A DNA stretch of 64,000 nucleotides. Origin: Chiloscyllium plagiosum (Eukaryota). Positions 3,816-60,465 of the stretch are shown here, piece by piece. Within the stretch, counting starts at the first letter, position 1; each line of letters begins with the position of its first letter. The stretch lies in the NCBI RefSeq assembly GCF_004010195.1, contig NC_057759.1, positions 6,861,853-6,925,852 on the forward strand, given 5' to 3'. The translations under genes and the position numbers were made by a program. The notes beneath the pieces are model-generated. The model did not search any database. It was given only the letters and a program-made list of their open reading frames with translations, and was not told the origin of the DNA.

Positions 3816-5127
3816 GAATTAAGGAGTATCCGAAGAGTTTTCTTTTTACAAATAAATTTAGGACAAAAGGGTAACTAGGGAGAGTATAGGGCCCCTCAAA
3901 GATCAGCAAGGCGGCCTTTCTGTGGAGCAGCGAAAAATGGGGGAGATACTAAATGAGTATTTTGCATCAGTATTTACTGTGGGAAAGAATATGGATGATG
4001 TAGACTATAAGGAAATAGATGGTGATATCTTGCAAAATGTCCATATTACAGAGGAGGAAGTGCTGGAAATCTTGAAACGTATAAGAGTGGATAAATCCCC
4101 AGTTAGAGAAGTGATTGTCGGGCCTCTTGCTGAGATATTTGTATCATCGATAGTCACAGGTGAGGTGCTGGACGATTGGAGGTTGGCTAACGTGGTGCCA
4201 GAAGGGTGGTAAGGACAAGCCAGGGAACTAAAGAACGGTGAGCCTGACCTCAGTGGTGGGCAAGTTGTTGGAGAGAGTCTGGAGGAACAGGATGTACATG
4301 CATTTGGAAAGGCAAGGACTGATTAGGGAGAGTCAACATGGTTTTGTGCGTGGGAAATCTTGTCTCAAAAAACTTGATTGAGTTTTTTGAAGAAGTAACA
4401 ATGAGGATTGATGAGGGCAGAGTGGTAGATGCGATCTATATGGACTTCAGTAAGGCGTTCGATAAGGTTCCCTAAGGGAGACTGATTAGCAAGGTTAGAT
4501 CGTATGGAATACAGTGAGAACTAGCCATTTATATACAGAACTAGCTCAAAGGTGGAAGATAGAGGGTGGTGGTGGAGGGTTGTTTTTCAGGCTGGAGGCC
4601 TGTGACCAGTGGAGTGCCACAAGGATCGGTGATTGATCCTCTACTATTCGTCATTTACATAAATGATTTGGTTGTGAGCATAAGAGGTATGGTTAGTAAG
4701 TTTGCAGATGACACCAAAATTGGAGGTGTACAGCGAAGAGGGTTCCCTCAGATTACAACAGGATCTGGACCAGATGGGCCAAAAGGGTGAGAAGTGGCAG
4801 ATGGACTTTAATTCAGATAAATGCGAGGTGCTGCATTTTGGGAAAGCAAATCTTAGCAGGACTTATACACTTAATGATAACGTCCTAGGGAGTGTTGCTG
4901 AACAAAGAGACCTTGGAGTGCAGGTTCATAGCTCCTTGAAAGTGGAGTCGCAGTAAATACAATAGTGAAGAAGTCGTTTGGTATGCTTTCCTTTATTGGT
5001 CAGCATATTGTGAACAGGAGTTGGGAGGTCATGTTGCGGCTGTACAGGACATTGGTTAGGCCACTGCTGGAATATTGCGTGCAATTCTGGCCTCCTTCCT
5101 ATCGGAATGATGTCGTGAAACTCGAAA

Positions 5128-5336
5128 AGGCTGAAAAAAGTGTTGCTGGAAAAGCGCAGCAGGTCAGGCAGCATCCAAAGAGAAGGAGAATCGACGTTTC
5201 AGGCAAAAGCGCTTCTTCAGACTTATGCCCGAAACCTCGATTCTCCTGCTCCTTGGATACTGCCTAACCTGCTGCGCTTTTCGAGCAACACATTTTTCAG
5301 CTCTGATCTCCAGCATCTGCTGTCCTCACTTTCTCC
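5128..5336. mobile_element. Palindromic Penelope-derived mini-element (family 1)
   Basis: Inverted arms 5131-5220 and 5222-5300 plus a one-sided tail; TSD TGAAACTCGAAA at 5116-5127 and 5337-5348. The arm sequence matches the terminus of the RT-bearing element at 56813-57980. Confidence 0.85.
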
Positions 5337-7253
5337 TGAAACTCGAAAGGGTTCAGAAAAGATTTACAAGGATGTTGCCAGGGTTGGAGGATTTGACCTA
5401 TAGTGAGAGGCTGAACAGGCTGGGGCTGTTTTCCCTGGAGTGTCGGAGGCTGAGGGGCGACCTTGTAGAGGTTTACCAAATTTTGAGGGGCATGGATGGG
5501 GTAATTAACCAAAGTCTGTTCCCTGGGGTGGGGGAGTCCAGAACTAGAGTGCATAGGTTTAGGGTGAGAGGGGAAAGATATAAAAGAGACCTACGGGGCA
5601 ACTTTTTCACACGGAGGGTGGTACATTTATGGAATGAGCTGCCAGGTGACATGGTGGCGGCTGGTATAACTGCAACATTTAAAATCATTTGGATGGGTAT
5701 ATAAATAGGAAAGGTTTGGAGGGACATAGGCCAGGTACTGGCACGTGGGACTAGATTGCAATGGGATATCTGGTCGGCATGAACGAGTTGGACCGAAGGG
5801 GCTGTTTCCATGCTTTACATCTCTATGACTCTATGAGTTTTTCCAGCAACTTTCCCACCAGTGACGTCAGGCTCATTGGTCTGTAGTTACCTGGAATATC
5901 CCTACTACCCTTCTTGTACAGGAGGCAACATGAACAACCCTCCAGTTCTCTGGTACTTGACTTGTGTTTAAGAATGCTGCAAAGATATCTGTCAAGGCCC
6001 GAGGTATTTCCTCTTCCGCCTCTGTCAGCAACCTGTGATAGAACCCATCCGGTCCGTGAGATTTGTCCACCTTTTATATCCTTTAGCCTACCCAACATAT
6101 CATCTCTCCTTATGCCAACGTGATCCAGAGCAAACAAGCTTCCATCTCTAATGTCATCATTCACCATGTCCCTCTCCACAGTGACCATTGATGCAAAGTA
6201 ATTATTCAGAATCTCACCCATTTTCTCAGGTTCGACACACAATCTTCCTTCTTTATCATTTCGCGGATCAACCCTTTTTGTTTTTATCCCTTACTTCTTA
6301 AATATCAGGAAACAATCTTGGGATTCTCCTTAATTCTGCTTGTGAAGTTATTTCATGACCACTTTTAGCCAGATTGATTCCTCGTTTAAAATATATCCTA
6401 TTCCCCCGATATTCCTCCATTGCCCATTGCGTTCTTAACTGCCTGGACCTTCTGTACGCTCCATTTTCCTCTTGGCTAGTCGCACGAATTCTCCTGTAAA
6501 CCACGGTTCATGAATCTGGCCGTTCATGTCCCTTATTTTCAAAAGGACATGCCTTTCCTGCACTACCTTCAAACAATCTTCGAATGCCTCCCACATATCA
6601 AATGTATACTTCACTACAAATAGATGCTCCCAATCCACATTTCCCAGCTCCTGCACAGTTTTGATACAATTGGCCTTGGCCCAGCTTAGTCCTCTCCCAT
6701 TAGGACCACTCTCATCTTTGTCCACGAGTATTGTAAAACTTAGAGTTGTGATCACGATTCCCAAACAAACCCAGTACTGCATCTTCTACCACCTGGCCTG
6801 GCTCATTCCCCAACACAGGTCCCTTTCTTAGTCGGACTATTGACATACTACTCCGGAAAACTTTCCTGGATCCTCCTTACAAATTCTGCCCCTGCCAGAC
6901 CTCTGACACGAAGTGTATCCCAGTCAATGTTGGGAAAATTAAAATCTCCCATCACCGCCGCTCTGTTGCCTCCACATCTTTCTATAATCTGTTCACCTAT
7001 TTCTTCTTTTATCTCACACGCACTGTTGCGAGGCCTGTTGTACAGCCCCAACAATGCAACTGCACCCTTCTTATTTCTCAGCTATACCCATAATGCCTCA
7101 CTGCTCAAGTCCGCCATCGTGCCCTCCTTTAGCACTGTTGTGACATCAATCCTGACCAGCAATGCAACTCATCCCCCCTTTTACTTCCCTCCCTGTCCTA
7201 TCTGAATTATCTATATATTGGAACATGTAGTTGGCAAACATGCCCTTCCTTCA

Positions 7254-7461
7254 GAGCTGAAAAATGTGTTGCTGGAAAAGCGCAACAGGTCAGGCAGCAT
7301 CCAAGGAGCAGGAGAATCGACGTTTCGGGCATAATCCCTTCTTCAGGGCAGCCCTCTCTCCTGTTCCTTGGATGCTGCCTGACCTGCTGCGCTTTTCCAG
7401 CAACACATTTTCAGCTCTGATCTCCAGCATCTGTAGTCCTCACTTTCCCCTAGTTGATTTT
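7254..7461. mobile_element. Palindromic Penelope-derived mini-element (family 1)
   Basis: Same arms as 5128-5336; TSD ATGCCCTTCC(T/A)TCA at 7240-7253 and 7462-7475. Confidence 0.85.
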
Positions 7462-7769
7462 ATGCCCTTCCATCACCAAAGTCTCTATCATAGCAATAAC
7501 GTCATAGTCCCAGATACAAATCCAAGCCCAAAGTTCAACTGGCTTACACACTGCACTCCTTGCATTAAAGTATATCCACGTCAACTGTTCTCTGCCTACT
7601 CTTTCCCTTGATAATGCTGGCTTCATGATCCTTACGTTCTCTACTATCCACTTTACTATGTAATAGTCCTCTGTTCTGGTTCCCAACCCCCTGTCACATA
7701 TTACTGAAGATTGCTGCTCCAATACTTGCTGCTCCTCTGACGAAGGTGACAGTGCAGTTAAGTCACTGG

Positions 7770-9175: not shown

Positions 9176-9699
9176 GTGTTGTATATCTGTTGTCAATCGC
9201 TGAGTTCCTATTGCGTATCTCTCACTAATCGCTGAATTCCAATTATGCATTTTTCTCAAATCACTGAGCTTGCGTGTCTCTCTGCCGGTCACTGAGCTTC
9301 AACTGCTGTATCCATGACCAATCACTAAGTTTAACTATGCATCTATCACAAATTACTTACCCTGACTCTGTATCAGTATCCAAAGACTGAGCTCTTATTG
9401 TCTGTCTGGCACCAGTCACTGAGCGACGACGGTTCATTTATGACTAATCACTGAATTCCAACTGTGCAACTATACCAACCACTGCGCTCTGATTGTGTGT
9501 CTGAAATCAATCAGCAATCAGTGAGTTCCAATTATCTGTCAATATTTACTGAGTTCCACCTGTGCATGTGTCACCAATCGCTGAGGTGACTGCGTAATTG
9601 TGACCAGTTATTGAGCTTCAACTGTGCGTCTCTCACCAATCACTGTTCTCTGACTGTGTAACAGTCACTGATGAAAAAGCTCTGACTGTGTATCTATGA

Positions 9700-10156
9700 C
9701 AGAACACCAGATTACCTGCTGTGAGGCAGCAGTGGTTAGCACTGCTGCCTCACAGCGCCAGAGACCCGGGTTCAATTTCCGACTCAGGCGACTGACTGTG
9801 TGGAGTTTGCACATTCTCCCCGTGTCTGCGTGGGTTTCCTCCGGGTGCTCCGGTTTCCTCCCACAGTCCAAAGATGTGCAGGGTCAGGTGAATTGGCCAT
9901 GCTAAATTGCCCGTAGTGTTAGGTTAAAGGGGTAATTGTAGGGGTATGGGTGGGTTGTGCTTCGGCCGGTCGGTGTGGACTTGTTGGGCCGAAGGGCCTG
10001 TTTCCACACTGTAAGTAATCTAATTATCGCCCAACAGGTTTATTCAGAAGTACAAGCTTTGGGAGCACTGTTTCTTCGTCAGGTTTGCGACTAGAACCTG
10101 GTGTTCTGTGGTTTTTAATTTTGTCCAAACCAGTCCACCACTGCACCTCCACATCA
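9700..10156. mobile_element. Penelope-derived mini-element (family 2), split by a SINE
   Basis: CAGAACACCAGATTA..TCGCCCAACAGGTTTATT..CTTCGTCAGG followed by the inverted GACTAGAACCTGGTGTTCTGTG..CTCCACATCAT; similar to 24501-24630. Confidence 0.6.
9716..10023 (+). mobile_element. HE1-type V-SINE with an inverted 5' end
   Basis: B-box-like GGTTCAATTTCC, V-domain GTGTGGAGTTTGCACATTCTCCCCGTGTCTGCGTGGG and a GTAAGTAATCTAA tail. Confidence 0.93.
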
Positions 10157-11499
10157 TGTGTATGTATCACTTATTATTGATGCATGATTATGAATGTGTC
10201 CACCACTGAGTTCTGACTGCGTATCTATCACCAGTTATTGATCACCATCATATCTACCACCTGTCACTGGGTTACAACTCAATGAGTTGTCACAAATCAA
10301 TGAGCTCTGACTGTGCATGTGTCACCAATCACTAGAGCTCCAGCTATGAGTCTATCACCTGATCTGTGACTCTTTGTCACCAATCACTGAGTTCTGAATG
10401 TTCAACAATCAGCAGTCATAGATGTCCAATTGTGATTATGTCATCACCACTGCGCTCCAATCAATGAGGTCCAATGGCACTGAGCTCTGTATCTGGCAAC
10501 AATCAATGAACTTTAATGTGCATCTGGTACCAATCATTGAGATCCAACTATCTTCATTTCCTCTTAGCCAATGAGTTTCTGTTATCAAACTCCCAATGAT
10601 GGTTCAGTGTTCTCTTTTTGTTCAACTCCTGTCCATTTATGTCATGAATTCACCCTTCACAACATATTGCATTACATCCCACTGTTTACCTCTATCCATC
10701 ACTAAAAATCACGTGTGATCATTTCATCAATGAACTTTCATTATTATGAGCGCCCCATTTGTTAACTTGATCCAATCAACACCTCCACTTACTCCAAAGC
10801 TTTCTAACATTTTTCAAAATCTCAAAATTCAGTATTGTTTCAACATCAGCATTTTCTTTGTCGCCTTCTTCATTGTTATTTAATTGTTGAACTGACTGAA
10901 CTCCAATTGCCCAATTCTCTTCAGACTAAATTTCTTCTGGCTAACTATGATCCCAGTCTCAGTCTCTGCTTCATTCAATCTCTTCTTATGTTCTGTTCCT
11001 AGGACCAAAAAAAGATATTCCCTTTTGCACCTTTCACCAAATAGAAGCAGCTGGTCCAAAAACATCAGCAGTTCAAATCCCTCTATGTCAATTAGTAAAC
11101 TGTATGCTCCCAACAATCATCACCAACATTGCATCCATCTGTCCCCCATTCTTTCACAGTAAATAAATTCCAATTATCCAATGTCTTCCTGATCTCAATC
11201 TTTGCTTCTTTCCCTGTCATCGCATGGTCCATTCCCAGCACCTATGAAGGAATCTCACTGACAAACCTGTGGCCATATCTATGTCCCATCCTTCACTCAT
11301 GAAATAATTTGGCCATGTTCAAACATCCCCATTTTAATCTATTGATGTCGTGGTGTCCAATTATTCCTCACTCAATAATTTGCCAGATACCATTGTAAAT
11401 TCAGATGAGAAAGTCAAATTGAATTGTTTCTGTTGCTGATGATTCTGATGAACGTTTTGCTAAAACTATACAAGTAAGATCACATCTGACATACTGGAA

Positions 11500-15947: not shown

Positions 15948-17442
15948 CTGCAGTTTTGCAAAAAAAAAAGAGAAGAAAAAAGGAGGATTTGAGAGACAAA
16001 CTCTGAAGAGATTTTACCATGGAGCATCAACTTATTGCACGGATAGACATTGTAATGCTTGGTCTCTCCTAAATTGCTCGATTTTCCCGAAAACTGTTCC
16101 AGTTTTATTCGGTGACTGTTACTCCGAGTTCCAACGCATTAAAATTCTGGAGATCGTCATCAAATATGCCTCACATCAAACTATCTTTTTCAAACACCTT
16201 AGTATTCCAGAGTGCACACATCCAGGCTCAGTTATATTTTCTTATTGCTAAGTTCAATTTGCTAACGATATAGGCATGTCCTGATTTGCTACAATTCAAG
16301 ACTTGTTTTCACGACCCATTATAGAACACAAGCAATGCATTAGTTATTACTATGTTGCAGTAATTATTACTTCAAGATCTAACATCTATAAATAGTAACA
16401 AGTAAATTTTTAAATCCCAAGACACAGCTGATTGAACGAAGGGGCACTGAATTGGATTGGAAAGAGGAACTGGACGTTTTGTCCAAAAGAGACAGAAATC
16501 TGGATATTAATTTTGCAAAAACTAGTGCACAAACCAAAAGCATCTTCTTTTTGTTAATGAATAGACGAATTACAACGTACATTAAGATGAAATAAAAATC
16601 AAATATCAATGATTCATTGGAATGTTTGCTATCATCACAGTGAGAATTGTCAATCGGGTAAATTCAGACTCTCAATATTGGCACCAAACCATCAAAATTC
16701 ATATGCAGGTTGCAAATTACCAGAACGGCATAACCATTGAGATTGGGGAAGGGGTGAATAGAATACCTTGAGAGCATGCCCCCGGGAGGAAATAAAAGAT
16801 AGGCAAAGAGTCTGCTGGTGACAAACCAAGGGAGAAAAATGCTTGGTAGGGTGCGAACATAAGAGTTGAAATAAGATTGGCCACTCTAATAGCAGCCTGA
16901 ACAAGACAAGACTAAGTGCCTTGCTGTAGGCAACAAAGACGAAGATGATATTCACGTTCTTAAATTATTCAAATCAATATAAAATGCCAAAACCTGGAAG
17001 GGCCGTAATATGCATTGTTCCTTCAATGTGTTCTTTCTGGAGTTCAATAGCAGGCGTGAGACCAAAAAAAAGGTTGTTGGGAACACAGTGGTCTGTTGAC
17101 GTAGCAGACGAGTGGACGCACTTCTTTTTACAGGTAACTGTAACTGTTCTGAAAAATGGTCGCACTGTCTACATTTCATTTCCCTGATGTCGTTGAGACC
17201 ACCTCGTGAGCAGCGAAAACAGTGGGCGAGATTGAGTGCAACAGTGGCAGGTTCAGATTAGGGCCAGGTTTTTTCTCAGACAGATGCACGTATACTGCAG
17301 CTTCACATGGAAGATGTGTCTGGAATCTTGGCTACTGAGGAGACAAGATGTCGACGGAAGATGCTGCGCATTCTGTAGGTGCATGGAAAGCTATTGTAGG
17401 GTATGGATAGTTGTTGGAATTCGAAGAGAAGTGGACCATGGT

Positions 17443-18383
17443 TTTCAAAGCTTGTGAGAAGATTTGTAGCTCGGGTGCTCGTTGTTGTCGTTCTGTTCGC
17501 CGAGCTGGGAGTTTGTGTTGCAGACGTTTGGTCCCCTGTCTAGGTGACATCCTCAGTGCTTGAGAACCTCCTGTGAAGCGCTTCTGTGATGTTTCCTCCG
17601 GCATTTATAGTGATTTGTACTGCTGCTTCCGGTTGTCAGTTCCAGCTATCCACTGCAGTGGTCGGTGTATTGGGTCCAGGTCGATGTGCTTATTGATTGA
17701 ATTTGTGGATGAATGCCATGCCTCTAGGAATTCCCTGGCTGTTCTCTGTTTGGATTATCCTATAATAGTAGTGTTGTCCCAGTCGAACTCATGTTGCTTA
17801 TCATCTGAGTGTGTGGCTACTGAGGATAGCTGGTCATGTTGTTTCGTGGTTAGTTGGTGTTCATGGATGCGGATCATTAGCTGCCTTCCTGTTTGTCCTA
17901 TGTAGTGTTTTGTGCAAAACCAATGTAGTGTACAAAATCCCATGCAAGGACTGCACAAAACACTACATAGGACAAACAGGAAGACAGCTAATGATCCGCA
18001 TCCATGAACACCAACTAGCCACGAAACGACACGACCAGCTATCTTTAATAGCCACACACTCAGATGACAAGCAACATGAGTTCGACTCAGACAACACTAC
18101 TATTATAGGACAAGCCAAACGGAGAACAGCCAGGGAATTCCTAGAGGCATGGCATTCATCCACAGATTCAATCAATAAGCACATCGACCTGGACCCAATA
18201 AACCGACCGCTGCAGCGGACAGCTGGAACTGACAACCGGAAGCGGGATTCAAATCACTATAAATGCCGGAGGAAACATCACAGAAGCGCTTCACAGGAGG
18301 CTCCCAAGCACTGAGGATGTCACCCAGACAGGGGACGAAACGTCTGCAACACAAATTCCCAGCTTGGCGAACAGAAACACAAC
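17443..18383. mobile_element. Penelope-like (Poseidon-type) inverted-repeat insertion carrying the GIY-YIG region (family 3)
   Basis: Arms 17443-17916 (-) and 17917-18383 (+). The + arm encodes KTNVVYKIPCKDCTKHYIGQTGRQLMIRIHEH..REFLEAWHS..IN. 13-bp TSD AGTGGACCATGGT at 17430-17442 and 18384-18396. Confidence 0.93.
18308..18347 (+). ncRNA. Minimal hammerhead ribozyme motif (PLE-associated)
   Basis: GCA-CTGAGGA-TGTCACCCAGACAGGGGAC-GAAA-CGTC-TGC: conserved core, 3-bp helix I (GCA/TGC), palindromic ACGT helix III and a GUC cleavage triplet. Confidence 0.75.
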
Positions 18384-19254
18384 AGTGGACCATGGTGTCT
18401 GAGATGAAATGGTCTCCTTGGAATGCTGGCATGCGAGAAAGACGAAAATGGTTATGCAGTGGCATCCCGCGGGAGGTGGTGGGCATAGCAACTTTTTCTC
18501 CTTCGTATACAGATGTGCTGAAAGTGAGGAGCAGGGAACACGATCATTGTAGCGGGAGGTGAAGGAAGATGTGAGGGCAAATACATGGGTAAAGGCTCGG
18601 AGATAGCTCAGTTGCCTGTCGTCGTGTTAGCTGGAGTGACAAAAAAAATCACGTTTCTGAGCCACACCTAGACAAGGTAGCATCTTCAAAGCAGATGCAA
18701 TGGAGATGGAGAAATGGAATGGAATGTTGCCCTTAGACGAAACCAAGTGTGAGGTTGTAAAGCTCAGGACGTTGTGCCATTCAATGTGTTAGTAATCATA
18801 TTCCTGGTCAGCCTATTCTTGGTACAGAAACAGAGATCATAAGAAAGAAAACTGAGGCTTTCGAGATTAACGAGGTGATCGTGATCATGGTGGAAATTAA
18901 CAACTTGTTTTCTGCAATTCCACACGACAGAGGGAAGTGGAACAAGTCATCCAATTGATGTACTGGAGGAAGAGATTTGGGGAGGCACCCAAGTAGAATT
19001 AGAAGGAGGAATCTTCCACAAAATAGACAAAACAAAATTGGACAGAGCTGGCATCAATTCTGGTGCTCAGCCAAACCATTGAATTGAAGAAAGTTTCGCA
19101 AGTTAGAATAGAGCTTATTAAAGGTGAGGACAAAAGCGGCAGGATGGAGGAAGATGCTGACCAGTGGGTTTGGGTCAGGTCTTCTCGTATTTTTAGTTTT
19201 CTACTTTAATATCTTTGGAACATAGACTTTATAATTAATCAATTATAACTAAAT

Positions 19255-21832: not shown

Positions 21833-21850
21833 AAACTGAAAGGGTAATAT
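21833..21850 (-). other. Candidate 18-nt micro-exon
   Basis: ctcacttacAG|ATATTACCCTTTCAGTTT|GTGAGT; frame-preserving, phase 1-1 reading xITLSV. Confidence 0.3.
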
Positions 21851-24500: not shown

Positions 24501-24857
24501 ATGATTTGGAGATGCCGGTGTTGGACTGGGGTGTACAAAGTTAAAAATCACACAACACCAGGTTATAGTCCAACAGGTTTAATTGGAAGCACACTAGCTT
24601 TCGGAGCGACGCTCCTTCATCAGGTGATTGTGGAGGGCTCGATCGTAACACAGAATTTATAGCAAAAATTTGCAGTGTGATGTAACTGAAATTATACGTT
24701 GAAAAATTGATTGTCTGTTTAGCCTTTCATCTGTTAGAATACAGTGATAGTTTCACTTCTTTCATGTGTAAATCACAACACCATTTTTTTTTAAAAGTGG
24801 CATTCTCGGGTTAGCTGTTAACAATGGTGATAGCTAGACAATATGTTGAAGGTATTA
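24501..24857 (-). mobile_element. Penelope-like element 3' terminus (family 2)
   Basis: Terminal sequence shared with 9700-10156 and 51436-51540; contains an intact hammerhead core; inserted in a CR1. Confidence 0.65.
24592..24626 (-). ncRNA. Minimal hammerhead ribozyme motif
   Basis: Reverse complement CAC-CTGATGA-A-GGAGC-GTC-GCTCC-GAAA-GCTA-GTG: perfect 5-bp helix II, 3-bp helix I (CAC/GTG) and palindromic AGCT helix III. Confidence 0.8.
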
Positions 24858-24865
24858 GTGTGTGT

Positions 24866-24909
<44 letters not shown>
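24858..24909 (+). repeat. (TG)n microsatellite
   Basis: About 25 TG units with one interruption. Confidence 0.97.
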
Positions 24910-28402: not shown

Positions 28403-29019
28403 CTGAAAAAATAGCAAAAGAAGTTTTATGATATGGGAATGTGGTTTTGTTTCCAGCTTTAGGTACACCATTGTGATATAATTTGAAAAGCTTAAACAAT
28501 TAAATATTCGACTGTCAATCAAAATCTGTTTTCTGAATTCTCATAAAACACTTCTGAGATCTACAAATGGAATATTGCTTCCATTTCAAGGAATTATACC
28601 GCAGAGGTCAAAGCTAAGTCTTGGGGTTTAATTGGGTAGCAAATCCAAGTTGTTCAAAGTTGAGATTTGCATAATGTTTGAACCATTCTATCATTCACTA
28701 ACGCATTCACGGTGAGACCAGTATTCCATATGAGGCTAAGAATACTGGGAATGCCGTGAATGCAATAAGTTCATTCATGTGCGAAGAAAATTACGCAGAA
28801 GGGTCAAGGACGATAAGAAAATAAACTCTTTTTTTGGAAGATATCGATTTAAGGCAAAATCTTTACTTTATTTTTGATTGTGTGAAAAATCAGCTTTTGA
28901 GTTCAGCTCAATATTTTTCGCTTTCCAAAGCACACATTCGAAATCCATTACTGCAGAGAAACTGTCAGCAGTTGAGCATGGAAGTAATTTCATCGTACAC
29001 TAATATTGCTGGACCAAAT

Positions 29020-33323: not shown

Positions 33324-33927
33324 CTATTACAGTAACATTCACATTCTCGCTCAGCTGGGATTCTAACCATCTTCCATTGACAAAAGTTTCATATTGGCAT
33401 GGATACAATCCCGTCAATTTAGATTAGATTAGATTAGATTACAGTGTGGAAACAGGCCCTTCGGCCCAACGATTCCACACCGACCTGTCGAAGCGGAACC
33501 GACCCATACCCCTACATTTACCCCTTACCTAACATTACGGGCAATTTAGCATGGCCAATTCACCTGACCTGCACATCTTTGGACTGTGGGAGGAAACCGC
33601 AGCACCCGGAGGAAACACACGCAGACACGGGGAGAACGTACAGACTCCACACAGTCAGTCGCCTGAGGCGTGAATTGAACCAGGGTCTCAGGCGCTGTGA
33701 GGCAGCAGTGCCACCGTGCCGCCCACAACTTCACCTGAGTAACGGGAAAATGCCACTGTTTTTCACTGCGATGAGTTGGTCAGCGGATAATATTTGACTC
33801 CCTTTCAAAAATTTTAAATTTTTGTCACCATAATCAGCAAGAGCATTACATGTAATAGTGACTGATTCTCCTATGGCATACAATCCAGTTGACTGGTCAA
33901 GAGAAATTGTCGGCTTCAGTAGAGGCT
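33324..33927 (-). pseudogene. Ig C2-type pseudo-exon disrupted by a SINE and a 1-nt deletion
   Basis: ctgctgcAG|PLLKPTISLDQSTGLYAIGESVTITCNALADYGDKNLKFLKGSQILSADQLIAVKNSG-(fs)-FPVTQVKL-[SINE]-TGLYPCQYETFVNGRWLESQLSENVNVTVI|GTGAGT. Confidence 0.88.
33421..33725 (-). mobile_element. HE1-type V-SINE inside an Ig exon
   Basis: Full head to (TAATC)n tail; flanked by CAATTT/CAACTT, a near-TSD. Confidence 0.93.
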
Positions 33928-46900: not shown

Positions 46901-46907
46901 TTCAGTT

Positions 46908-46939
46908 TCCTGAAGAAGGGCTTATTCCTGAAACGTCGA
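46908..46939 (+). ncRNA. Degenerate minimal hammerhead motif in a Penelope terminal fragment
   Basis: TC-CTGAAGA-AGGGCTTATTCCT-GAAA-CGTC-GA; helix II is partly decayed. Confidence 0.55.
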
Positions 46940-47205
46940 TTCTCCTTCTCCTCGATTCGGCCCAACAAGTCCACACTGACCCGCCGAAGCACAACCCAAT
47001 ATGAGAATCATCTTCGAATCCAAGTACCTCTTTAGCATTTTTAAGAACCATTTCTCTCACTTTTAATTTACCCAACCACATGTCACCGAAAGTAAATACC
47101 TCACCTAGGTGTAATTTAATGATCCAGGCCATGAGCCTGCAAGTGTTGAAATCTGCTGGGATTTCTTGTACCCCGAAACCTATTTAAATCTGTCTAAACC
47201 AGTTC

Positions 47206-48871: not shown

Positions 48872-51430
48872 TAGAAACACAGAAACATAGGAAATATGAG
48901 CAGAATGAGGCCATTTGGCTCGCCAAGCCTGTTTCATCATTCATCACAATCATGGCTGATTGTCCAACTCAATCGCCTAATCATACCTTTTCTGCATAAA
49001 CTTTGATCACATTAACGCCAAGTGCTATATCTGGTGTCTTAAATGTATTAAATCTTTTAGAATCAAATATTTCCTGTTGCAATGAATTCCACAAGCTCAC
49101 CATCCTTTAGGTGGAGAAATGACTCGTCACATATGTTCTGAATGGTTCACCCCAAGTCCACAGACTGTGACTCCTTGCTCTCGACAAACCCATCATCGAG
49201 AAAATCCTCCTGCGTCCAACCTACCTGTCTGCTCCTGTTAGACTTTTAAAAGTCTGGGTGTAAGTTTTTCTCGTTGAGCTGGAAGGTTCATTTTTAGACA
49301 TTTCAACACCATGTCAAGTAACATCTTCAGTGAGCCCGGCTTCGTCCAGTGGCTCATTGAAGATGTTACTAGTATGGTGATGAAACGTCTGAAAATGGAA
49401 CTTTCAGCTCAGCGAGCAAACCTACACCCAGAACCTCAACCTGAGTTACAAATTTTCTGAAAACTCGCTTTTAAAAGTCTCTATGTGATCTCCTCTCATT
49501 TATAGAATCACTGAGATGCACAGCACGGAAACAGACCCTTTAGAACTATTCGTTCATGCTGACCAGATTTCCTAATCTAATCTAATCTCGCTCCATTTTC
49601 CAGCATTTGACCCATATCTCTCTAAATTCTTCCCATACATATATCCATTCAGATGCCTTTTCATTGTTGTAATTGTATCAATCTCCACCACTTCCTCTCA
49701 CCGCTCATTCCATACACACACCACCTTCTGCATGAAAATGTTGTTCCTTTGGTCCCTTTTAAATGTTTTCCCTCCCACCCTCTAGTTTGGACTCCCCTAC
49801 GACAGGGAAAAGACGTTGTCTATTTAATTTAGCAATGTCGTTCATGATTTTACATAACCATTGTGAGGTCACCCCTTATCCTCCGATTCTCCGTGGAAAA
49901 TAACCTCAACCTATTCAGCCTCTCCTGAAATATCAAATCCTTTAAACTTGGCAGCATTCTTTTAAGCCTTTTCTGAACCCTTTCAGGTATCACAACATCC
50001 TTCCAATAGGAAGGTACCAGAATTGCACACAATATTCCAAAAGTGTCCTAACCAATTTCCTGTGCAGCCGTAACATGACCTCTCAACCCCTGTAGTCAAT
50101 GCTCTCATCATTAATGGAAAACATATCAAACGCCTTCTTCACTATTCTATCTTGCTGCTCGTTTACTTTTAAGAAACAAAGATTCTGCACTCCAAGGTCT
50201 CTTTGTTCAGCAGTTGTCTGAACTCCCGTGAAATGAATCGTAACTTAGTCCATCTTTCTTCATGTGTTAGACCCACCAGCCCTGCTATCAGCACAGTAAT
50301 CCTTCACTTCACTTCCCGGAGAACAGGAGCTTTCTTCTACAGAACAGCAGATGAAAACTGTACACAGCATTCTTGGTGTGGACTCACCAAGGCCATGTAT
50401 AACTACAATAACACATTCCTTTTCCTTAACTCGAAACCTCTTGCAATGAAGGTGAACATATTATGTGCCTTCTTTACCGTTGCTGCACCTGTATGTTTAC
50501 CTTCAGCAATAGATGCACGCTTCCTTCTCCTAATTTACAGCCATTCCGGTAGTAAACTGTCTTCTTGTGCTTTGCTTCCAAAGTGAATAGCCTCACATTT
50601 ATACAAATTGTACTGCATCTGTCATTCATTTGCCCACTCACCCAACCTGTCCAGATTATGCTGAACGATTTCTGCACCCTTGTCACAGTTCACCCTCCCA
50701 TCCAACTTCGTAACATCTGCAAACTTTGAGATGCTATATTCTGTTCCCTCATCTAAGTCATTATTATATGTTGTGAATAGCTGTGATCCTAGCAACGATC
50801 CCTGTGAACACCACTAATCACCAATTGCCGATTCGAAAAGGACCCATTGTTTCGTACTCTTTGTTCCCTCTCTGTCGACCTCAATCTCAATCCATTTTAA
50901 TATATTTTCCTCAATCCCATGTGCTGTAATCTTGCACAATAATTTCTTACGTTGGACTGTGTCAAATGTTTTCTGGAGGCTAAACATACAATATCGAGTG
51001 AATTCCCCCTTGGCAACTCCAGTAGTTGCATCTGCAATGGTTCATTGACAAAAGTACATCAGTGACACAAATGAGTCAAACAAATAAATTTTTGAACTCC
51101 TCCAAAAAGTCTTTTTTGTTCTGGTGTGGGGGAGTCCAGAACTACAGGGCGTAGGTTTAGTGTGAGAGGGGAAAGATGTAAAAGAGACCGAAGGGGCAAC
51201 ATTTTCACGCACGGAATGGTACATGTTTGGAATGACCTACCAGAGCATTTCGTGGAGGCTAGTACAATTGCAACATTTAAAAGGCATCTGGATGGGTGTA
51301 TGAGTAGGATGGATTTGGAGGGATATGGGTCGTGTGCTGACAGGTGGAACTAGATTGGGTTGGGATATCTGCTCGGCATGGACATGTTGAACTGAAGACT
51401 ATGTTTCCATGCTGTACACCTCTATGCCTC
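48872..51430. mobile_element. Nested CR1 fragments (- 48872-51040 including a second copy 49500-50210; + 3' end 51105-51430)
   Basis: CR1 3' UTRs and tails; RT motif reverse complement ACATCTGCAAACTTTGAG (SKFADV); C-terminal ORFs ERVQKRLKRMLP and NIFTHGMVHVWNDLP. Confidence 0.8.
49256..49467. mobile_element. Palindromic Penelope-derived mini-element (family 3-related)
   Basis: Inverted arms around a spacer near 49335-49350, each with a decayed hammerhead (CTGAAGA..GAAATGTC on -, TTGAAGA..GAAACGTC on +); one-sided tail; 13-bp TSD CTTTTAAAAGTCT at 49243-49255 and 49468-49480. Confidence 0.85.
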
Positions 51431-51435
51431 CATTA

Positions 51436-51540
51436 CCAGATTATAGTTCAACAAGTTTATTTGAAACTTGTTGGACTATAATCTGGGATTGTGTGATTTT
51501 TAATTTCTTCCACCACATTCCAACACTGGCACTTCCACTT
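51436..51540. mobile_element. Very short palindromic Penelope remnant (family 2)
   Basis: CCAGATTATAGTTCAACAAGTTT..AAACTTGTTGGACTATAATCTGG hairpin, followed by the family-2 tail. Confidence 0.6.
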
Positions 51541-54569: not shown

Positions 54570-56812
54570 AACAATAGAATTTCTGGAGATACCTGAATGG
54601 ATGCCAACGTGACAGACGGTGAAAAATGCAGGGAAGTTGTCAAAGTACCCATTTCATTCCTGAGAAGGAAAATTAGATTACCATTTAAAATTGTGAAATT
54701 TGCAAGGGTTAAATTTGAAAGAGTCTTGTGGTTTGTCAGAGGTGCAGCAAAGTACGTTTGCTAAGAACATCGCAGCAAACAATTAGCGAGACAAATGGGA
54801 CATCTATGTTTATTGACAGGGATCTCAAGAATAGGACAAAAGAAGTCTGTTTAAGATGAAGAGGCTTCTTAATGAGGACACATCGGGGTATTAAGTGCAT
54901 TATTTTGTCTTTAATGGAATTGACTTGTTTGGAGTATAGCATATGTTCATACACTATTGCTTTTTATGGGCGAGGTTAAACCTATTGGGACTCATTAGCA
55001 TTTAGAAGAATGAGGTGTGACTTCACTCAAACATAATGGATTCTTCAGGGGCGTGACAGTTAAATAATGAAAGGCTGTTCCACACGTGGTCGGAGTCTCC
55101 GACCAGTGGGCATAATCTTAGGGTATCAAGTTAAGACTGTGTGGATGAGGAATATCATATCTCAGAGCATCGTAAATCTTTGGAACTCCTTGCTACAAAG
55201 AGCTGTGGGGGCGAAGCCTTATTTATTTTTAAGGCTGTGATAGATCTTTGGTCAGTAGGGCAATCAAAGGTTACGGCAAAAGGGCAGGAAATTGGATGTG
55301 AGAAATGTTGGATCAGCCATGATAGAATACATTTCAGAAGCAAGCTCAAGAGGCAGAACTGCTTCTAATTCTAATATTATTTGGATGTCAGATTGACTGG
55401 TTAGGAGAAGTTTGTTAAATTGGATTAATACCCCATGGAATTTAGAAGAATTAGAAGTGATCTCATTTATATATGAAGGGGCACAGACAATATGACTACT
55501 GATGCTTTATTATGTTGATTACAGAATCCATAATTTGGGTATAGAGTCTCGGCATAAGGAACTGATCTTTTTTTTACTTAAATCACTTCAATCAAAATGT
55601 TAGGAATCTTGCAAACTTTCAACTACAAATAACTGTAAATGCTCTGAAGCAATATGTAACATGCTCTGGATGAATCTATAAAACGTGTTGCTTTAAAATA
55701 GCTCAATGCGCATCACATGGAATTGCATCCGAAGCAAAAGTTGCAGGTATCATAGTAAGTTTTCTAAACTTAATTTAACAGAAGTGAGTTGCGTCAAACA
55801 GTGCGGTTTTGGAGTGGAATGAAATGCCTAAAATGGACATCTTTACTATTTGCAAGATGGAGAACAAACGTGTTGACCTTCCAGGAGCTGAGTGTTAAAG
55901 TGGGAAATGTTTTGATAAGAGTATTAACATCACAATTTTGAGGCATGAATAAAGCCTCTGAGATTTAAAGGTTAATGTTTCTGACCTTTATATTGTAGAG
56001 AGTAGACATGAAAAATCTGGACACCAGACAAAACGAAGAAATTCATGAAACAGCTTTAGTGAGGTTGCAGAGGAGATTTACAAGGATGCTGCCTGAATTG
56101 GAGGGCTTCCCTTATGAAGGGAAGTTGAGTGAACTTAGGCTATTCACACAAGAGAGAATAATTTTAGATTAGGTTCTTTACAGTATGGAAACAGTCCCTT
56201 TGGCACAACAAGTCAACACTGACCCTCTGAAGACTAACCTACCTAGCCCCATATATGCCCTTGACTAATGCAGCTAACACTATGGGCAAATTAGCATGGC
56301 AAATTCACCTGGCCTGCACATCATTGCGTTGTGGGAGGAAACCCACACACACAAAAAGGGAGAATGTGTAAATCCACACGGATGGTCACCTGAGGTGGGA
56401 ACTCAGGTCCATATTGCTGTGAGGTCGGAGTATAACCACTGACTCACCGTATCACCCCAGTGACCTGATGGAAGTGTACAAGGTAATAAGGTGAATATAC
56501 AGATAAGATAGCCAGAGATGTTTCCCCCTGCCAGAAATGGCTGTCACGTGGGGTCATACTTTTAAGCTGATTGGAGAATGGTATTGGGAGATGTCAGAGT
56601 TAGTTTGTCTTTGCAGAGAGTGGTGGATGGTTGGAATGCAGTGCCAGCACTGTAGTATAGACAAAGACATTAGGAACATTTAAGCGACTGCTGTACAAGC
56701 ACATGGACGAAAGTAAATGTTGGGGTGTTAAGGTTAGGTTGATCTTAGATTAAAATAGATGCTCGGCGCAGTAACGTGGGCTGACGGGCCTATACTGTCC
56801 TGTAATGTTCTA
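54570..56812 (+). mobile_element. Degenerate CR1 3' fragments
   Basis: Repeated TTTAGAAGAATGAG..TGA motif, GCAGAGGAGATTTACAAGGATGCTGCCTG and a 3' UTR ending TGTAATGTTCTA. Confidence 0.7.
56162..56460 (-). mobile_element. Older HE1-type SINE
   Basis: Diverged head, V-domain and tail; inserted in a CR1. Confidence 0.8.
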
Positions 56813-56910
56813 GGAGGAAAAAGTGAGGTCTGCAGATGCTGGAGATCAGAGCTGAAAATGTGTTGCTGGAACAGCGCAGCAGGTCAGGCAGCATCCAGGG
56901 AACAGGAGAA

Positions 56911-56942
56911 TCGACGTTTCGGGCATAAGCCCTTCTTCAGGA
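56911..56942 (-). ncRNA. Minimal hammerhead ribozyme motif
   Basis: Reverse complement TC-CTGAAGA-A-GGGC-TTAT-GCCC-GAAA-CGTC-GA: intact core, 4-bp helix II and ACGT palindrome. Confidence 0.75.
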
Positions 56943-57009
56943 ATGAGGAAAGTGTGTCCAGCAGGCTAAGATAAAAGGTAGGGAGGAGGGACTTGGGGGA
57001 GGGGCGTTG

Positions 57010-57720
57010 NNNNNNNNNNNNNNNNNNNNNNNNNNNNNNNNNNNNNNNNNNNNNNNNNNNNNNNNNNNNNNNNNNNNNNNNNNNNNNNNNNNNNNNNNNN
57101 NNNNNNNNNNNNNNNNNNNNNNNNNNNNNNNNNNNNNNNNNNNNNNNNNNNNNNNNNNNNNNNNNNNNNNNNNNNNNNNNNNNNNNNNNNNNNNNNNNNN
57201 NNNNNNNNNNNNNNNNNNNNNNNNNNNNNNNNNNNNNNNNNNNNNNNNNNNNNNNNNNNNNNNNNNNNNNNNNNNNNNNNNNNNNNNNNNNNNNNNNNNN
57301 NNNNNNNNNNNNNNNNNNNNNNNNNNNNNNNNNNNNNNNNNNNNNNNNNNNNNNNNNNNNNNNNNNNNNNNNNNNNNNNNNNNNNNNNNNNNNNNNNNNN
57401 NNNNNNNNNNNNNNNNNNNNNNNNNNNNNNNNNNNNNNNNNNNNNNNNNNNNNNNNNNNNNNNNNNNNNNNNNNNNNNNNNNNNNNNNNNNNNNNNNNNN
57501 NNNNNNNNNNNNNNNNNNNNNNNNNNNNNNNNNNNNNNNNNNNNNNNNNNNNNNNNNNNNNNNNNNNNNNNNNNNNNNNNNNNNNNNNNNNNNNNNNNNN
57601 NNNNNNNNNNNNNNNNNNNNNNNNNNNNNNNNNNNNNNNNNNNNNNNNNNNNNNNNNNNNNNNNNNNNNNNNNNNNNNNNNNNNNNNNNNNNNNNNNNNN
57701 NNNNNNNNNNNNNNNNNNNN
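57010..57720. other. Assembly gap (N run)
   Basis: 711 N bases. Confidence 1.
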
Positions 57721-58830
57721 CGAAGGAATTGTGAGAATGGGATGGCGTTTTTACAGGGGGCAGGGTGGGAGGAGGTGTAGTCCAGGTAGCTGTGGGAGTC
57801 GGTCGGTTTGTAGTAGATGTCCGTGTTGATTCGGTCGCCTGAGATAGAAATAGAAAGGTCGAAGAAGGGGAGGGAGGAATCTGAGACTGTCCAGGTGAAT
57901 TTAAGGTCGGGGTGGATGGTGTTGGTGAAGTGGATGAACTGTTCAACCTCCTCGTGGGGATGAACTGTTCAACCGCCTCATGTAATGTTCTATGTTGTTT
58001 ATCTAGAGCAAATATCAAGCAAACAGTGATTAAAGTACATTGTGTCTATTTATATATTTATTATTTTTGAAATGAGTATGTAATTCCACCTTGAATAAAA
58101 TAAATTAAACAACATCTAAAAAAAACGCTGCTGTAAACGAACAGAAGGATTTGGTATATACTCAATTACGTACACAATTACAAGACAATTAATCCAATTT
58201 TAAAAAATCTTTTAGCGTTCAGTTTAACATGACCTCATAACTCAATAACGAAATGTCCTAAATTACGATCAATTTTACACACATTTTGAGAGAATTTAAG
58301 ATTGTTAGTAAAGCCATGGATATTTGGTTTTATAAGATCTGGCCTTAAAAAAAAGGTGCATCAAAGGAGAGGATACTTTTAAAGTCGTTATTATTTCCTG
58401 TTCACAATTATAAAGCCCTTTGTCAAAGGAAATCAACAAATATCCTTTGAAATTTACCTAAGTGACGTATGTTATTAAGTTATTTTGCAGAACATTGCCC
58501 ATACTGTGAGCAGAACCATAACTCTTTTCACTGGTGATAGAAAGGCATTGAGAACAATACCTCTTCATTAAGTCAACATTAAGCCCAGCACATGACCCTC
58601 GACTGCCAACCCCTCGAATGAGGAAAATCTGAGATTCCTGTTCATATCTGTCTACTTGGCCACGATTACGATTGACTACGATTAACAGACCCCATCAGGG
58701 AATCCATATTCAATGAGATCCACCTGACCAACTCCGTTCTAATCACTACAACTGCAAGTCCGTTTGTTTTTTTTTTCAATTTCATTGATGTGACACGGTC
58801 ATTGTTGGCTGACCAATATTTATTGCCATA

Positions 58831-59190
58831 GGCGAAAGTGAAGATGCAGATGCTGGAGATCAGAGTCAAGATTAGAGTGGTGCTGGAAAAGTACAGCCGT
58901 TCAGTCAGCATCCAAGAAGCAGGAAAATCGACATTTTGGGCAGGAGCCCTTCAACGGGAATGAAGCTGGGAGACTCCGGGGGGAAAGATAAATGGGAGGG
59001 GGTGGGGTTAGGTAGAAGCTAGCTAAGGCTGCAATAGGTGGATGGAGGTGGGGATGAACGTGATAACTTGGATAGGCGAGAGGAGTAGATAGGTAGGAAG
59101 GAAGTTTGGCAGGTAGGGCAGGTCATGAGGATAGTGCTGAGCTGGCAGGTTGGAGATGGGGTAAGCGATGGAGGGGAAATAAGGAAACTG
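58831..59190 (-). mobile_element. Older Penelope 3' terminal fragment (family 1-related)
   Basis: AAAGTGAAGATGCAGATGCTGGAGATCAGAG..GCTGGAAAAG..AATCGACATTTTGGGCAGGAGCCCTTCAACGG (decayed hammerhead) plus a purine-rich UTR. Confidence 0.7.
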
Positions 59191-59194
59191 GTGT

Positions 59195-59760
59195 GTCTGG
59201 CTCGTAGAAGTGTAGAAAGTATTTGCACATTCAGCTATTGACAGAGCATATTGCTGCACTGATGAAAGAACTCGAGGACCTTAGGCTCATCCAAGAGAAC
59301 AAGTCATGATTTCCTAGTCTTGGGAATCTATGCGGTACTGTAGCCTTCAGCGACAGTACAATCTGCAACCTCATGGCCTAGCATTCCGCTAGCTCAATCG
59401 TTACCATTAAACCAGATAATCAAGCCTGGCTCATCGACAGTGCAGGAAGGCATACCAGGGCAGAACCAGGAAATCTAAAAAATGTTTAAACCTGGCCAAG
59501 TTACCAAACAGGACGCTTTGCATAGCAACAGCACGATCATTGAGCCATGCCACAAGAAACGGATCTTTGGAGGAAGATGATCCATAAATATAGTCATTCT
59601 CCATGATGGAAGAGCCCAACATATCAGTGCAAAAGGTGAGTCAAATGCATTTGTAACAATCGTCAACCAAAACATCGAAGTGGATGATCCATTTCAGCCT
59701 GTTCCAGTTATTGGAGCAATATAGATAACAGTTGTCAGCAAATTTGATTCACTCCAAGTA
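59195..59760 (+). mobile_element. Degenerate CR1/L2-clade LINE fragment
   Basis: Decayed ORF2-like sequence (CATGATGGAAGAGCCCAACATATCAGTGCAAAAG..GAAGTGGATGATCCAT). Confidence 0.55.
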
Positions 59761-59846
59761 ATATAACCTGTTCAAAGTTTGTGCTAAGATTTGTAGCTCG
59801 GGTGCTCGTTGTTGTGGTTCTGTTCGCAGAGCTGGAAGTTTTTGTT

Positions 59847-59886
59847 GCAAACGTTTCATCCCCTGGCTAGGCGACATCATCAGTGC
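59847..59886 (-). ncRNA. Minimal hammerhead motif (left arm)
   Basis: Reverse complement GCA-CTGATGA-TGTCGCCTAGCCAGGGGAT-GAAA-CGTT-TGC. Confidence 0.65.
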
Positions 59887-60376
59887 TTGGGAGCCTCCTG
59901 CGAAGCGCTCCTTTGATGTTTCCTCCGGTGTTTATAGTGGTCTGTCCCTGCCGCTTCCGGTTGTCAGTTTCAGCTGTCCGCTGTAGTGGTTGGTATATTG
60001 GGTCCAGGTCGATGTGTTTGTTGATGGAGTTTGTGGATGAATACCATGCCTCTAGGAATTCCCTGGCTGTCCTCTGTCTGGCTTGCCCTATGATAGTAGT
60101 GTTGTCCCAGTCAAATTCACACACACGCAGACAACAAGCAACATAAATTCGACTGGGACAACACTACTATAATAGGGCAAGCCAGACAGAGAACAGCCAG
60201 GGAATTCCTAGAGGCATGGCATTCATCCACAAACTCCATCAACAAACACATCGACCTGGACCCAATATACCAACCACTACAGCGGACAGCTGAAACTGAC
60301 AACCGGAAGCGGCAGGGACAGACCACTACAAACACCGGAGGAAACATCAAAGAAGCGCTTCGCAGGAGGCTCCCAA

Positions 60377-60416
60377 GCACTGATGATGTCGCCTAGCCAG
60401 GGGACGAAACGTTTGC
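60377..60416 (+). ncRNA. Minimal hammerhead motif (right arm)
   Basis: GCA-CTGATGA-TGTCGCCTAGCCAGGGGAC-GAAA-CGTT-TGC; GUU cleavage triplet. Confidence 0.72.
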
Positions 60417-60465
60417 AACAAAAACTTCCAGCTCGGCGAACAGAACCACAACAATATAACCTGTT

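Follow-up and report, generated by a model that had tools for sequence, protein, structure and literature searches.

Seven short palindromic inserts, E1 to E7, lie in a 64,000-nucleotide stretch of DNA from the shark Chiloscyllium plagiosum (the window). All seven consist of two outward-facing, head-to-head copies of the 3' end of an element of the Penelope type (PLE), as a preliminary description of at least seven such inserts had proposed. Both copies are truncated on their 5' side to about 30-470 nt, leaving the palindrome alone. A tail is confined to exactly one arm in every insert (P<=0.008 under independent tail choice per arm); it lies at the right end of E1, E2, E3, E5 and E6 and at the left end of E4 and E7. 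The tails measure 32-49 nt (about 35-50 nt in the earlier estimate) and vary also within family A, from 32 nt in E1 to 44 nt in E2 (Table 1). The tail is a common design across the families, not a constant length. The two arms of an insert differ by 3-15% and share the letters of their own subfamily, E4 with E4 and E7 with E7. Tailless and tailed arms are at most 14 nt apart in total length in four of the seven inserts (E2, 94/105; E3, 73/71; E4, 468/473; E7, 333/347). The three sequence families recognized earlier were found again, but E5 additionally forms a separate subfamily, C', related to E4 and E7. The palindrome earlier placed at 9700-10156 (E3) is real, although about 310 of its 457 bp belong to a later SINE and E3 proper is about 145 bp long. 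Inverted pLTRs (pseudo-LTRs) with a one-sided tail and a target-site duplication (TSD) have already been published for PLEs (PMC3846280, PMC8557442). The shark inserts are real, but for the most part they are ordinary PLE products.

Table 1. Positions in the window of the palindromic inserts E1-E7, their flanking duplications and the single-arm copy F1.
Feature	Position	Strand	Remarks
E1 left TSD copy, 12 bp	5116..5127	+	second copy 5337-5348; inside CR1-like LINE
E1 tailless arm, family A	5128..5220	-	extends to 5' edge of decayed hammerhead (F1 position 56940)
E1 tailed arm, family A	5221..5336	+	starts within hammerhead stem II (F1 56929); 32-nt tail
E2 left TSD copy, 14 bp	7240..7253	+	1 mismatch; second copy 7462-7475
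E2 tailless arm, family A	7254..7347	-	intact minimal hammerhead 7319-7346; then 9-nt linker 7348-7356
E2 tailed arm	7357..7461	+	starts 3 nt past predicted hammerhead cut (F1 56909); 44-nt tail
E3 tailless arm, family B	9700..10085	-	9700-9714 and 10028-10085, SINE-interrupted; decayed hammerhead
Later SINE in E3, not PLE	9715..10027	+	own short 5' inversion 9718-9756; 85-95% to other window copies
E3 tailed arm	10086..10156	+	48-nt tail; weak TSD 9687-9699 / 10157-10169
E4 left TSD copy, 13 bp	17430..17442	+	second copy 18384-18396
E4 tailed arm, family C	17443..17915	-	41-nt tail 17443-17483; GIY-YIG coding remnant
E4 tailless arm	17916..18383	+	open GIY-YIG frame 17910-18311; hammerhead 18311-18344; holds single-copy centre
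E5 left TSD copy, 13 bp	49243..49255	+	second copy 49468-49480
E5 tailless arm, subfamily C'	49256..49336	-	decayed hammerhead
E5 tailed arm	49337..49467	+	38-nt tail; only insert with tailed arm further 5' (14 nt)
E6, family B	51431..51540		tailless arm 51431-51463 (-); tailed arm 51464-51540 (+); 49-nt tail; left edge 51431/6
F1, single-arm family-A copy	56813..57980	-	tail 56815-56848; hammerhead 56913-56940; initiator-like A 56944; N gap 57011-57721 (711 bases); RT thumb remnant 57723-57959; TSD 56801-56812 / 57981-57992
E7 left TSD copy, 13 bp	59760..59772	+	second copy 60453-60465
E7 tailed arm, family C	59773..60119	-	38-nt tail; hammerhead 59850-59883
E7 tailless arm	60120..60452	+	hammerhead 60380-60413; holds 24-nt single-copy centre

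Five of the seven inserts are bounded by clear TSDs of 12-14 bp, the number claimed at the outset. The two copies agree at 12 of 12 positions in E1, 13 of 14 in E2 and 13 of 13 in E4, E5 and E7; those of F1 agree at 12 of 12. The clear TSDs score 12-13, and none of 300 random position pairs reached 12 (the best scored 11). The E3 duplication, with 11 of 13 matches in a decayed repeat flank, scores 9, a value equalled by three of the 300 random pairs, and none was found at the edges of E6. The E1 12-mer occurs singly in three further CR1-like copies of the window (43290-43301, 44891-44902 and 49981-49992). These sites are empty, and therefore the E1 TSD is a true duplication.

The arms tie the inserts to elements that encode an RT and a GIY-YIG endonuclease. 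In family C, the open frame of E4 shares 88-93% identity with three proteins of Chiloscyllium punctatum (P0002-P0004), one of which, P0003, has an RT running into the same endonuclease end; the Pfam GIY-YIG match of the E4 frame is weak (E=0.05, under the cut-off). In family A, the RT piece of F1 is 83-86% identical to P0030/P0031, and relatives have a GIY-YIG-type end; the link between this piece and the F1 3' end spans the N gap and is based on the scaffold and the shared TSD. The longest family-B copy in the window, 24501-24870, has a hammerhead and a tail and no recognisable ORF in six frames, and the PLE membership of this family (E3, E6) rests on architecture. The RT pieces of families A and C are 29% identical. 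A cysteine-rich linker between RT and endonuclease is present in the family-A relatives P0038 and P0044 and absent from P0003. Family A may belong to the Neptune clade and family C to the Penelope/Poseidon clades; the names follow in part a passage in PMC8557442.

The connection of the arms to RT/GIY-YIG ORFs of carpet-shark PLEs makes the inserts retro-products and not MITEs, which bears out what had been said of the MITE-like forms of about 200 bp. That size and the inverted arms are what DNA-transposon MITEs, or hairpins made by assembly, would also present. However, the inverted repeats do not reach both ends, one of which carries the unpaired tail in all seven inserts, and in place of a uniform interior and a transposase partner there are variable junctions and RT/GIY-YIG partners. 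Such an origin is refuted by the ORF link together with the 12-14 bp TSDs and is exceedingly improbable. An assembly artefact is an unlikely source of the palindromes: the arms of each insert have diverged, and opposite-strand family-A joints occur in contigs of three independent runs.

The hammerhead cores attributed to the inserts were overstated. A strict minimal-hammerhead descriptor matches four of the 14 arms (E2 left, E4 right and both E7 arms), and seven places in the window, in families A, B and C, compared to a shuffle mean of 0.06. In the other ten arms the core is decayed (E1 left, E3 left, E4 left, both E5 arms) or absent (E1 right, E2 right, E3 right, both E6 arms). An Rfam search of the window gave no hammerhead family, only sub-threshold miRNA matches; six of the seven weak matches are miRNA models falling on these palindromes. 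Among the loose ends listed for family-A read contigs there is no peak at the predicted hammerhead cut (56913/56912), and the 130-nt family-A unit folds no better than shuffles (z=-0.64). In Poseidon of Anolis carolinensis (PAc), hammerhead mutants leave insertion unaffected (PMC11167929). The hammerhead rides along with the pLTR as a passenger.

The two arms do not end at the same point. The tailless arm reaches further 5' in six inserts, by 10 nt in E1, 32 in E2, about 50 in E3 (derived from its piece lengths), 37 in E4, 5 in E6 and 24 in E7, and the E5 offset is -14. The single-copy centre lies on the tailless arm in the same six of seven inserts (P=0.06, not significant alone), a position by which priming at both nicks is favoured. 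The E6 offset is small and that of E5 has the opposite direction; later cutting of a complete hairpin by the endonuclease, at the base of the tail, would be another way to obtain a long tailless arm. Two of the three differences between the E2 arms are family-level variants, and this one insert may join two source RNAs. A two-template origin of E4 was considered and set aside, as its difference cluster near the ORF end is indistinguishable from mutation.

The preliminary description had proposed that identical centre junctions would indicate a self-propagating family and unique ones independent events. In F1 coordinates the junction is 56940/56929 in E1 and 56941/56909 in E2; those of E4 and E7 differ as well. 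Public sequencing runs were surveyed for family A, in assembled contigs, which collapse hairpins, and gave 15 listed joints and 62 or more beyond the listing. Eight of the listed joints connect opposite strands and all eight are different, each with 1-7 contigs per run compared to 66,820-106,551 family-A contigs. One joint, 56871/56942, recurs in three runs from two organisms at a depth of 207-378. None of the 15 was found in 3,607 raw reads. Family A also has some same-strand back-jumps (56943 to 56849). The window arms and two back-jump joints place the tailless end at 56848-56851; loose ends at 56855-56860, tried as an alternative position, are mostly subfamily linker variants. For the window inserts and the family-A contigs the outcome is independent events, but one family-A junction end is not random and piles up just 5' of the hammerhead.

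In all four runs, depth drops 5.0-6.8-fold across 56918-56957. Loose ends are commonest at 56943-56945, where their flanks are mixed (agreement 0.31-0.40). The A of a match to YYANWYY stands at 56944; this pattern occurs at 1.3% of window positions, and the initiator-like A is kept in the subfamily copies 58825-59230 and 31167-31255. Judging from the motif and the pile-up, this A, 4 nt before the hammerhead core, is probably the RNA start; no RNA 5' ends of family A were seen in a poly(A) single-cell library. With this stop, family-A arms grow to no more than about 95 and 130 nt, which limits the palindrome to about 200-225 bp, and a MITE-like size thus results without a self-propagating mini-element. 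E4 and E7 pass through the equivalent region without stopping. Six junctions from 56943/4 to 56909-56913, at depths of 95-669, may represent a recurrent class near the hammerhead cut, a same-strand jump or a k-mer effect. They were left aside as evidence of hammerhead cleavage, because ten of the 12 junctions in that list have offsets of 30-35 nt, near the assembly word size.

It is fairly probable that each insert represents one insertion event by an autonomous PLE and that the palindrome was built at the target, by dual priming, early stop and joining, and not copied from an earlier palindrome. The GIY-YIG endonuclease would nick both strands 12-14 bp apart, the spacing of the observed TSDs. 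Both 3' ends would then prime RNA-templated cDNA, one at the far end of the tail and the other at an internal site at the tail base. The cDNAs would stop early and their 3' ends would be joined, with the overlap of 0-3 nt or the short linker seen in the inserts. Most family-A cDNAs would run off at a constant 5' end lying 4 nt ahead of the hammerhead core, where the pile-up is seen and the putative start lies. The hammerhead would be carried along, dispensable for making the palindrome. In vitro, both strands are cut and extended by PAc, its tail is the stretch between two RT starts, and a dimer is predicted (PMC11167929). No difference in start site between the strands was seen for PAc, which leaves the use of one of each per shark insert unexplained. 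Of the proposal that the tail asymmetry records a shared two-step priming, two priming events at two RT starts stand as the most likely origin; the idea had already been published.

The main alternative is self-priming, in which one strand folds and is copied back into a hairpin, and the endonuclease trims the tail base on one side at integration. Head-to-head PLE inversions were read as self-priming on an antisense template (PMC3846280), and the tail was ascribed to endonuclease-mediated resolution (PMC8557442). The offsets between the arms are small (-14 to about +50 nt) even where arms are 330-470 nt long, as a hairpin loop would give, and E5 fits the plain version. This version fails in the other six inserts, however, because an arm copied back from a tailless one would have no template for its tail; with the loop on the tailless arm an extra trimming step is needed. 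Moreover, the tail has been mapped to RT start sites (PMC11167929), and the E2 arms differ at two family-level variant sites, which is not expected if one arm was copied from the other. Fold-back is therefore considered unlikely, though less so than the following possibility.

Some of the palindromes of about 200 bp could belong to a self-propagating non-autonomous family, whose palindromic RNA is re-inserted whole by PLE proteins. E1 and E2 are nearly the same size (209 and 208 bp), the joint 56871/56942 recurs, the junctions from 56944 cluster at 56909-56913, and non-autonomous retrozymes derived from pLTRs have been described (10.64898/2026.07.22.740005). On the other hand, E1 and E2 differ in junction and tail length, their size is accounted for by the 5' stop, and even the strongest joints are rare among the family-A contigs and missing from the raw reads. 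The retrozymes of that source, as far as described, come as tandem repeats or single units and do not form head-to-head pairs. Such propagation is distinctly improbable. Dual priming at the target is preferred to both alternatives.

A more specific form of dual priming is speculative and rather doubtful. The PLE protein may act as an asymmetric dimer with one subunit per nick, one starting from the tail end and the other internally, each able to carry its own RNA. The cDNAs would grow in step and join end to end, and most events would be short run-off products ('strong-stop'-like) from start sites about 95-130 nt inside the transcript 5' end. Hints are the single tail in all inserts, the similar arm totals in four of seven and the mixed variants of E2.

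The closest published systems are Pen2/Pen2a of Adineta vaga (PMC3846280), the PLEs in the overview of Craig et al. 2021 (PMC8557442) and Penelope of Drosophila virilis (PMC2377424), which share with the shark inserts 5' truncation, a TSD enclosing the unit and inverted 3' ends set head-to-head; their tail, an optional feature, measures 30-40 nt and is confined to one end. The TSDs are 12-14 bp in the shark and 8-10 bp in the rotifer, and shark tails reach 49 nt. Compared to published PLEs with inverted pLTRs, the shark arms are 30-470 nt with only the palindrome left, and the elements are present in very many copies (tens of thousands of family-A contigs per run). PAc (Frangieh et al. 2024, PMC11167929) has in common the tail bounded by two RT starts and an ATG in hammerhead stem II; the family-A ATG is at 56926 with the tail end 112 nt into the frame, and the main PAc start is at +111-118. 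Palindromes among the products, an assignment of one start site to each arm and a constant 5' stop are not described in the main text of that account. The minimal hammerheads of metazoan PLEs (Cervera and De la Pena 2014, PMC4209133) have the same core with almost no stem III. There, paired motifs on opposite strands are separated by 100-700 bp, and truncated PLEs account for many solo motifs; in the parts consulted, sharks were not included and junctions, tails and TSDs were not analysed. Non-LTR retrozymes (10.64898/2026.07.22.740005) are likewise short, hammerhead-bearing, pLTR-related and non-coding, but they are proposed to be mobile on their own, solo or in tandem, whereas the shark inserts are head-to-head one-off products. 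No head-to-tail hammerhead tandem array, a retrozyme feature, is present in the window. In twin priming of L1, both target nicks prime cDNA and an inversion within the TSD results. L1 joins different stretches of one RNA, whereas in the shark inserts a single 3' stretch is copied in both arms, with the tail as the difference between them.

Exact family-A patterns had no match in metagenome or viral contigs, and two matches in large bacterial contigs were treated as chance. A protein-based locus search found nothing in viral or genome contigs. In metagenomes it gave distant loci, and 30 of the best 80 of 205 have an inverted repeat. One of them, L034, the only such locus among the best 80 of 205, is flanked by a perfect 12-bp TSD and is extended on one side by 40 nt; its hammerhead-like motif was seen by eye and with a loose pattern and missed by the strict descriptor. 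L076 was discarded because it is AT-rich and of low complexity. The remaining TSD candidates, of 10 bp or less and mostly AT-rich, could be chance matches. In L014, L047 and L048 the arms are separated by 0.8-1.6 kb; small offsets are thus not universal in PLEs. A literature search found no account of these shark palindromes or of a constant 5' stop ahead of a PLE hammerhead, a weak negative as most subscription papers and Repbase/Dfam were outside the scope.

What goes beyond the published pattern is the centre on the tailless arm in six of seven inserts, the family-A 5' stop, the variable junctions and a possible two-RNA insert. For the origin of inverted pLTRs in PLEs, self-priming has been proposed (PMC3846280), and PMC11167929 speaks of 'steps yet to be validated'. 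Inserts of this kind can pass for MITEs or, as the Rfam matches illustrate, for microRNA hairpins, a warning for annotation. A genome rich in short TSD-bounded palindromes offers material for separating dual priming from fold-back, through three simple counts: the arm on which the centre lies, the frequency of palindromes with two tails or none, and the occurrence of arms from different source copies. If the asymmetric-dimer reading were true, the shark palindromes would document, across the genome, the unsolved second-strand step of PLE insertion.

The DNA around the inserts is repeat-rich and vertebrate, with CR1-like LINEs, one SINE family and ends of Penelope-like elements (PLEs). All seven palindromic PLE-derived inserts (E1 to E7) named in a preliminary description of the window are real. 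Their arms were oriented by the coding frame in E4 and E7 and, for families A and B, by the hammerhead core. Every insert has an antisense 3' end on its left and a sense 3' end on its right. The element 3' ends thus point away from each other, and the points of 5' truncation join at the centre, the single-copy middle. One arm per insert carries a tail. The five target-site duplications (TSDs) claimed as clear, of 12-14 bp, agree with our alignments (E1, E2, E4, E5 and E7), and none of 300 random pairs matches them; the E1 12-mer is single in three other CR1-like copies of the window. A strict hammerhead core is present in four of the 14 arms, but the other ten do not bear out the description. 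The proposed three families are found, except that E5 forms a subfamily related to E4 and E7. Self-comparison of the window found no symmetric PLE palindrome.

Inserts and other features of the window (positions within the window; F1 is a single-arm copy)
Feature	Position	Family	Tail (nt)	TSD match	Remarks
E1	5128-5336	A	32	12/12	209 bp
E2	7254-7461	A	44	13/14	208 bp
E3	9700-10156	B	48	11/13, weak	two thirds is a later SINE
E4	17443-18383	C	41	13/13	
E5	49256-49467	related to C	38	13/13	
E6	51431/6-51540	B	49	none found	
E7	59773-60452	C	38	13/13	
F1	56813-57980 (-)	A		12/12	contains 711-base gap
Repeat at F1 5' end	57930-57980	A			direct repeat of 15 bases of F1's own RT sequence
Single arm	24501-24909 (-)	B	present	none found	370 bp (24501-24870); no ORF found; intact minimal hammerhead 24595-24623; (GT)26 run at end
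Single arm	31167-31255	A or related			stops at F1 56946
Single arm	46907-46952	A or related			stops at F1 56943
Single arm	58825-59230	A or related			
Decayed PLE-like end	34570-34790	fourth			hammerhead motif 34678-34704 (-)
SINE in E3	9715-10027				39-bp palindrome 9718-9756 at start; 5' end inverted and duplicated
CR1-like fragments	44273-45110				nested, inverted; several strand switches
Tandem duplication	1239-1499				near-perfect; 131 bp x2, 96%
Tandem duplication	30077-30334				near-perfect; 139 bp x1.9, 98%
Older duplication blocks	28955-30722, 31583-33918				69-87% identity; no match to common repeats
Inverted repeat	28703-28763				24 bp, 13-nt centre; no hammerhead; by eye not a PLE end

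Other SINE copies of the window lack the inverted and duplicated 5' end. The tandem duplications are either recent duplications or assembly overlaps, and the decayed PLE-like end is possibly an old palindrome, although its self-alignment is weak.

Against three Chiloscyllium punctatum proteins the reading frame of E4 shows 88-93% identity, and against those of other carpet sharks 64-73%, which identifies the host as a bamboo shark or a near relative. Family C is the 3' end of an element encoding reverse transcriptase (RT) and a GIY-YIG endonuclease. Family A is linked to RT through F1, whose RT piece is 83-86% identical to the C. punctatum proteins P0030 and P0031; relatives of these two proteins carry a GIY-YIG-type domain at their end. 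The RT pieces of the two families are just 29% identical and, judged by linker cysteines, probably belong to the Poseidon and Neptune clades. Family B has a hammerhead and a tail, and no ORF link was found for it within the window. DNA-transposon MITEs were rejected because of the asymmetric ends, the long TSDs and the ORF link; the MITE-like inserts are retro-products, as had been proposed. Three annotated shark host proteins (P0002, P0010 and P0018: a MAP3K7, a 5'-nucleotidase-domain and a CUE-domain isoform) end in family-C endonuclease sequence, either as exonised PLE pieces or as gene-model artefacts. A short record labelled Proteus mirabilis (P0081, 474-bp contig), 97% identical to part of the F1 RT piece, is probably shark DNA inside a bacterial assembly.

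The F1 3' end (56790-57010; 568xx and 569xx positions are F1 coordinates) was used as reference at 82% likeness, and 66,820, 70,188 and 106,551 contigs from three runs and 3,607 raw reads from one RNA run were placed on it. All four runs have two prominent ends: one, at 56815, is that of the tail; the other, at 56943-56945, is a 5' end beyond which the flanks are mixed (agreement 0.31-0.40). Depth, which for contigs is not copy number, falls 6.4-, 5.0-, 6.8- and 5.2-fold from 56918-25 to 56950-57; tail depth is 0.57-0.67 of core depth, a ratio affected by subfamily variants. An initiator-like YYANWYY match has its A at 56944, 4 nt ahead of the hammerhead core and 18 nt ahead of an ATG in stem II. 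The 5' stop is not the hammerhead cleavage site, because the predicted cut (56913/56912) lies 31 nt further 3'. The stop is ~95 nt from the tailless end (56848-56851) and ~130 nt from the tail end, and a family-A pair can therefore be no longer than about 225 bp, a limit that E1 and E2 approach. Two single arms stop at the 5' edge of this family-wide pile-up. The 15-base repeat at the F1 5' end resembles the outcome of a template slip as cDNA synthesis was ending.

Junctions differ between inserts: 56940 to 56929 in E1, 56941 to 56909 in E2, across a 9-nt linker, and differing sites in E4 and E7. Eight of the 15 listed family-A joints change strand, all with different coordinate pairs and 1-7 contigs per run each, in data that leave 62 joints unlisted and some uncounted and in which contigs collapse hairpins; none of the 15 is present in the raw reads. 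Small self-propagating palindrome lineages are possible, and six rows of the junction table (56943/4 to 56909-56913) may represent a class that recurs, but the data favour independent events with one preferred end.

The preliminary description held that tail asymmetry records two-step priming. In copy-back the centre-bearing arm is the template and must therefore hold all that the copy holds. In six of seven inserts it is the tailless arm that holds the centre (offsets +10, +32, ~+50, +37, +5 and +24; E5, -14), so the tailed arm is not a plain copy of the tailless arm, which argues against plain fold-back. Two RNA-templated cDNAs, primed at two nicks from two start sites, would give the observed structure directly. 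Such priming agrees with PMC11167929, where both strands are cut and extended, two RT starts bound the tail, insertion is unaffected by hammerhead mutants and a dimer is predicted.

The centre count alone is weak (P=0.06), however, and fold-back followed by endonuclease trimming is possible (PMC3846280 and PMC8557442). One start of each kind occurs in all seven inserts (P<=0.008 under independent choice), and the two arms of an insert, even where they are 330-470 nt long, end no more than about 50 nt apart. Two of the three differences between the E2 arms are at family-level variants: 56902, at 44-62% of depth, and an extra A behind 56854, in 94 of 1,466 reads, linked in the five family-A arms (E1, E2 and F1) that cover both. 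From this single case E2 may join two templates; mutation or gene conversion could also explain the differences.

Among 80 metagenome loci that match the endonuclease distantly, one (L034, 1752-2156, on a non-shark contig) has the shark-like design, with a perfect 12-bp TSD, a 40-nt tail on the left arm and a hammerhead-like motif on the tailless arm; three of the 80 have kilobase spacers between arms. Inverted pseudo-LTRs with a one-sided tail and TSD are already described in PMC3846280, PMC8557442 and PMC2377424, and hammerhead pairs on opposite strands, 100-700 bp apart, in PMC4209133. The test based on the centre lying in the tailless arm and the size cap set by run-off were not found in print, a weak negative given gapped literature coverage, and are modest additions to knowledge; the shark palindromes are a very abundant addition to an architecture already known.
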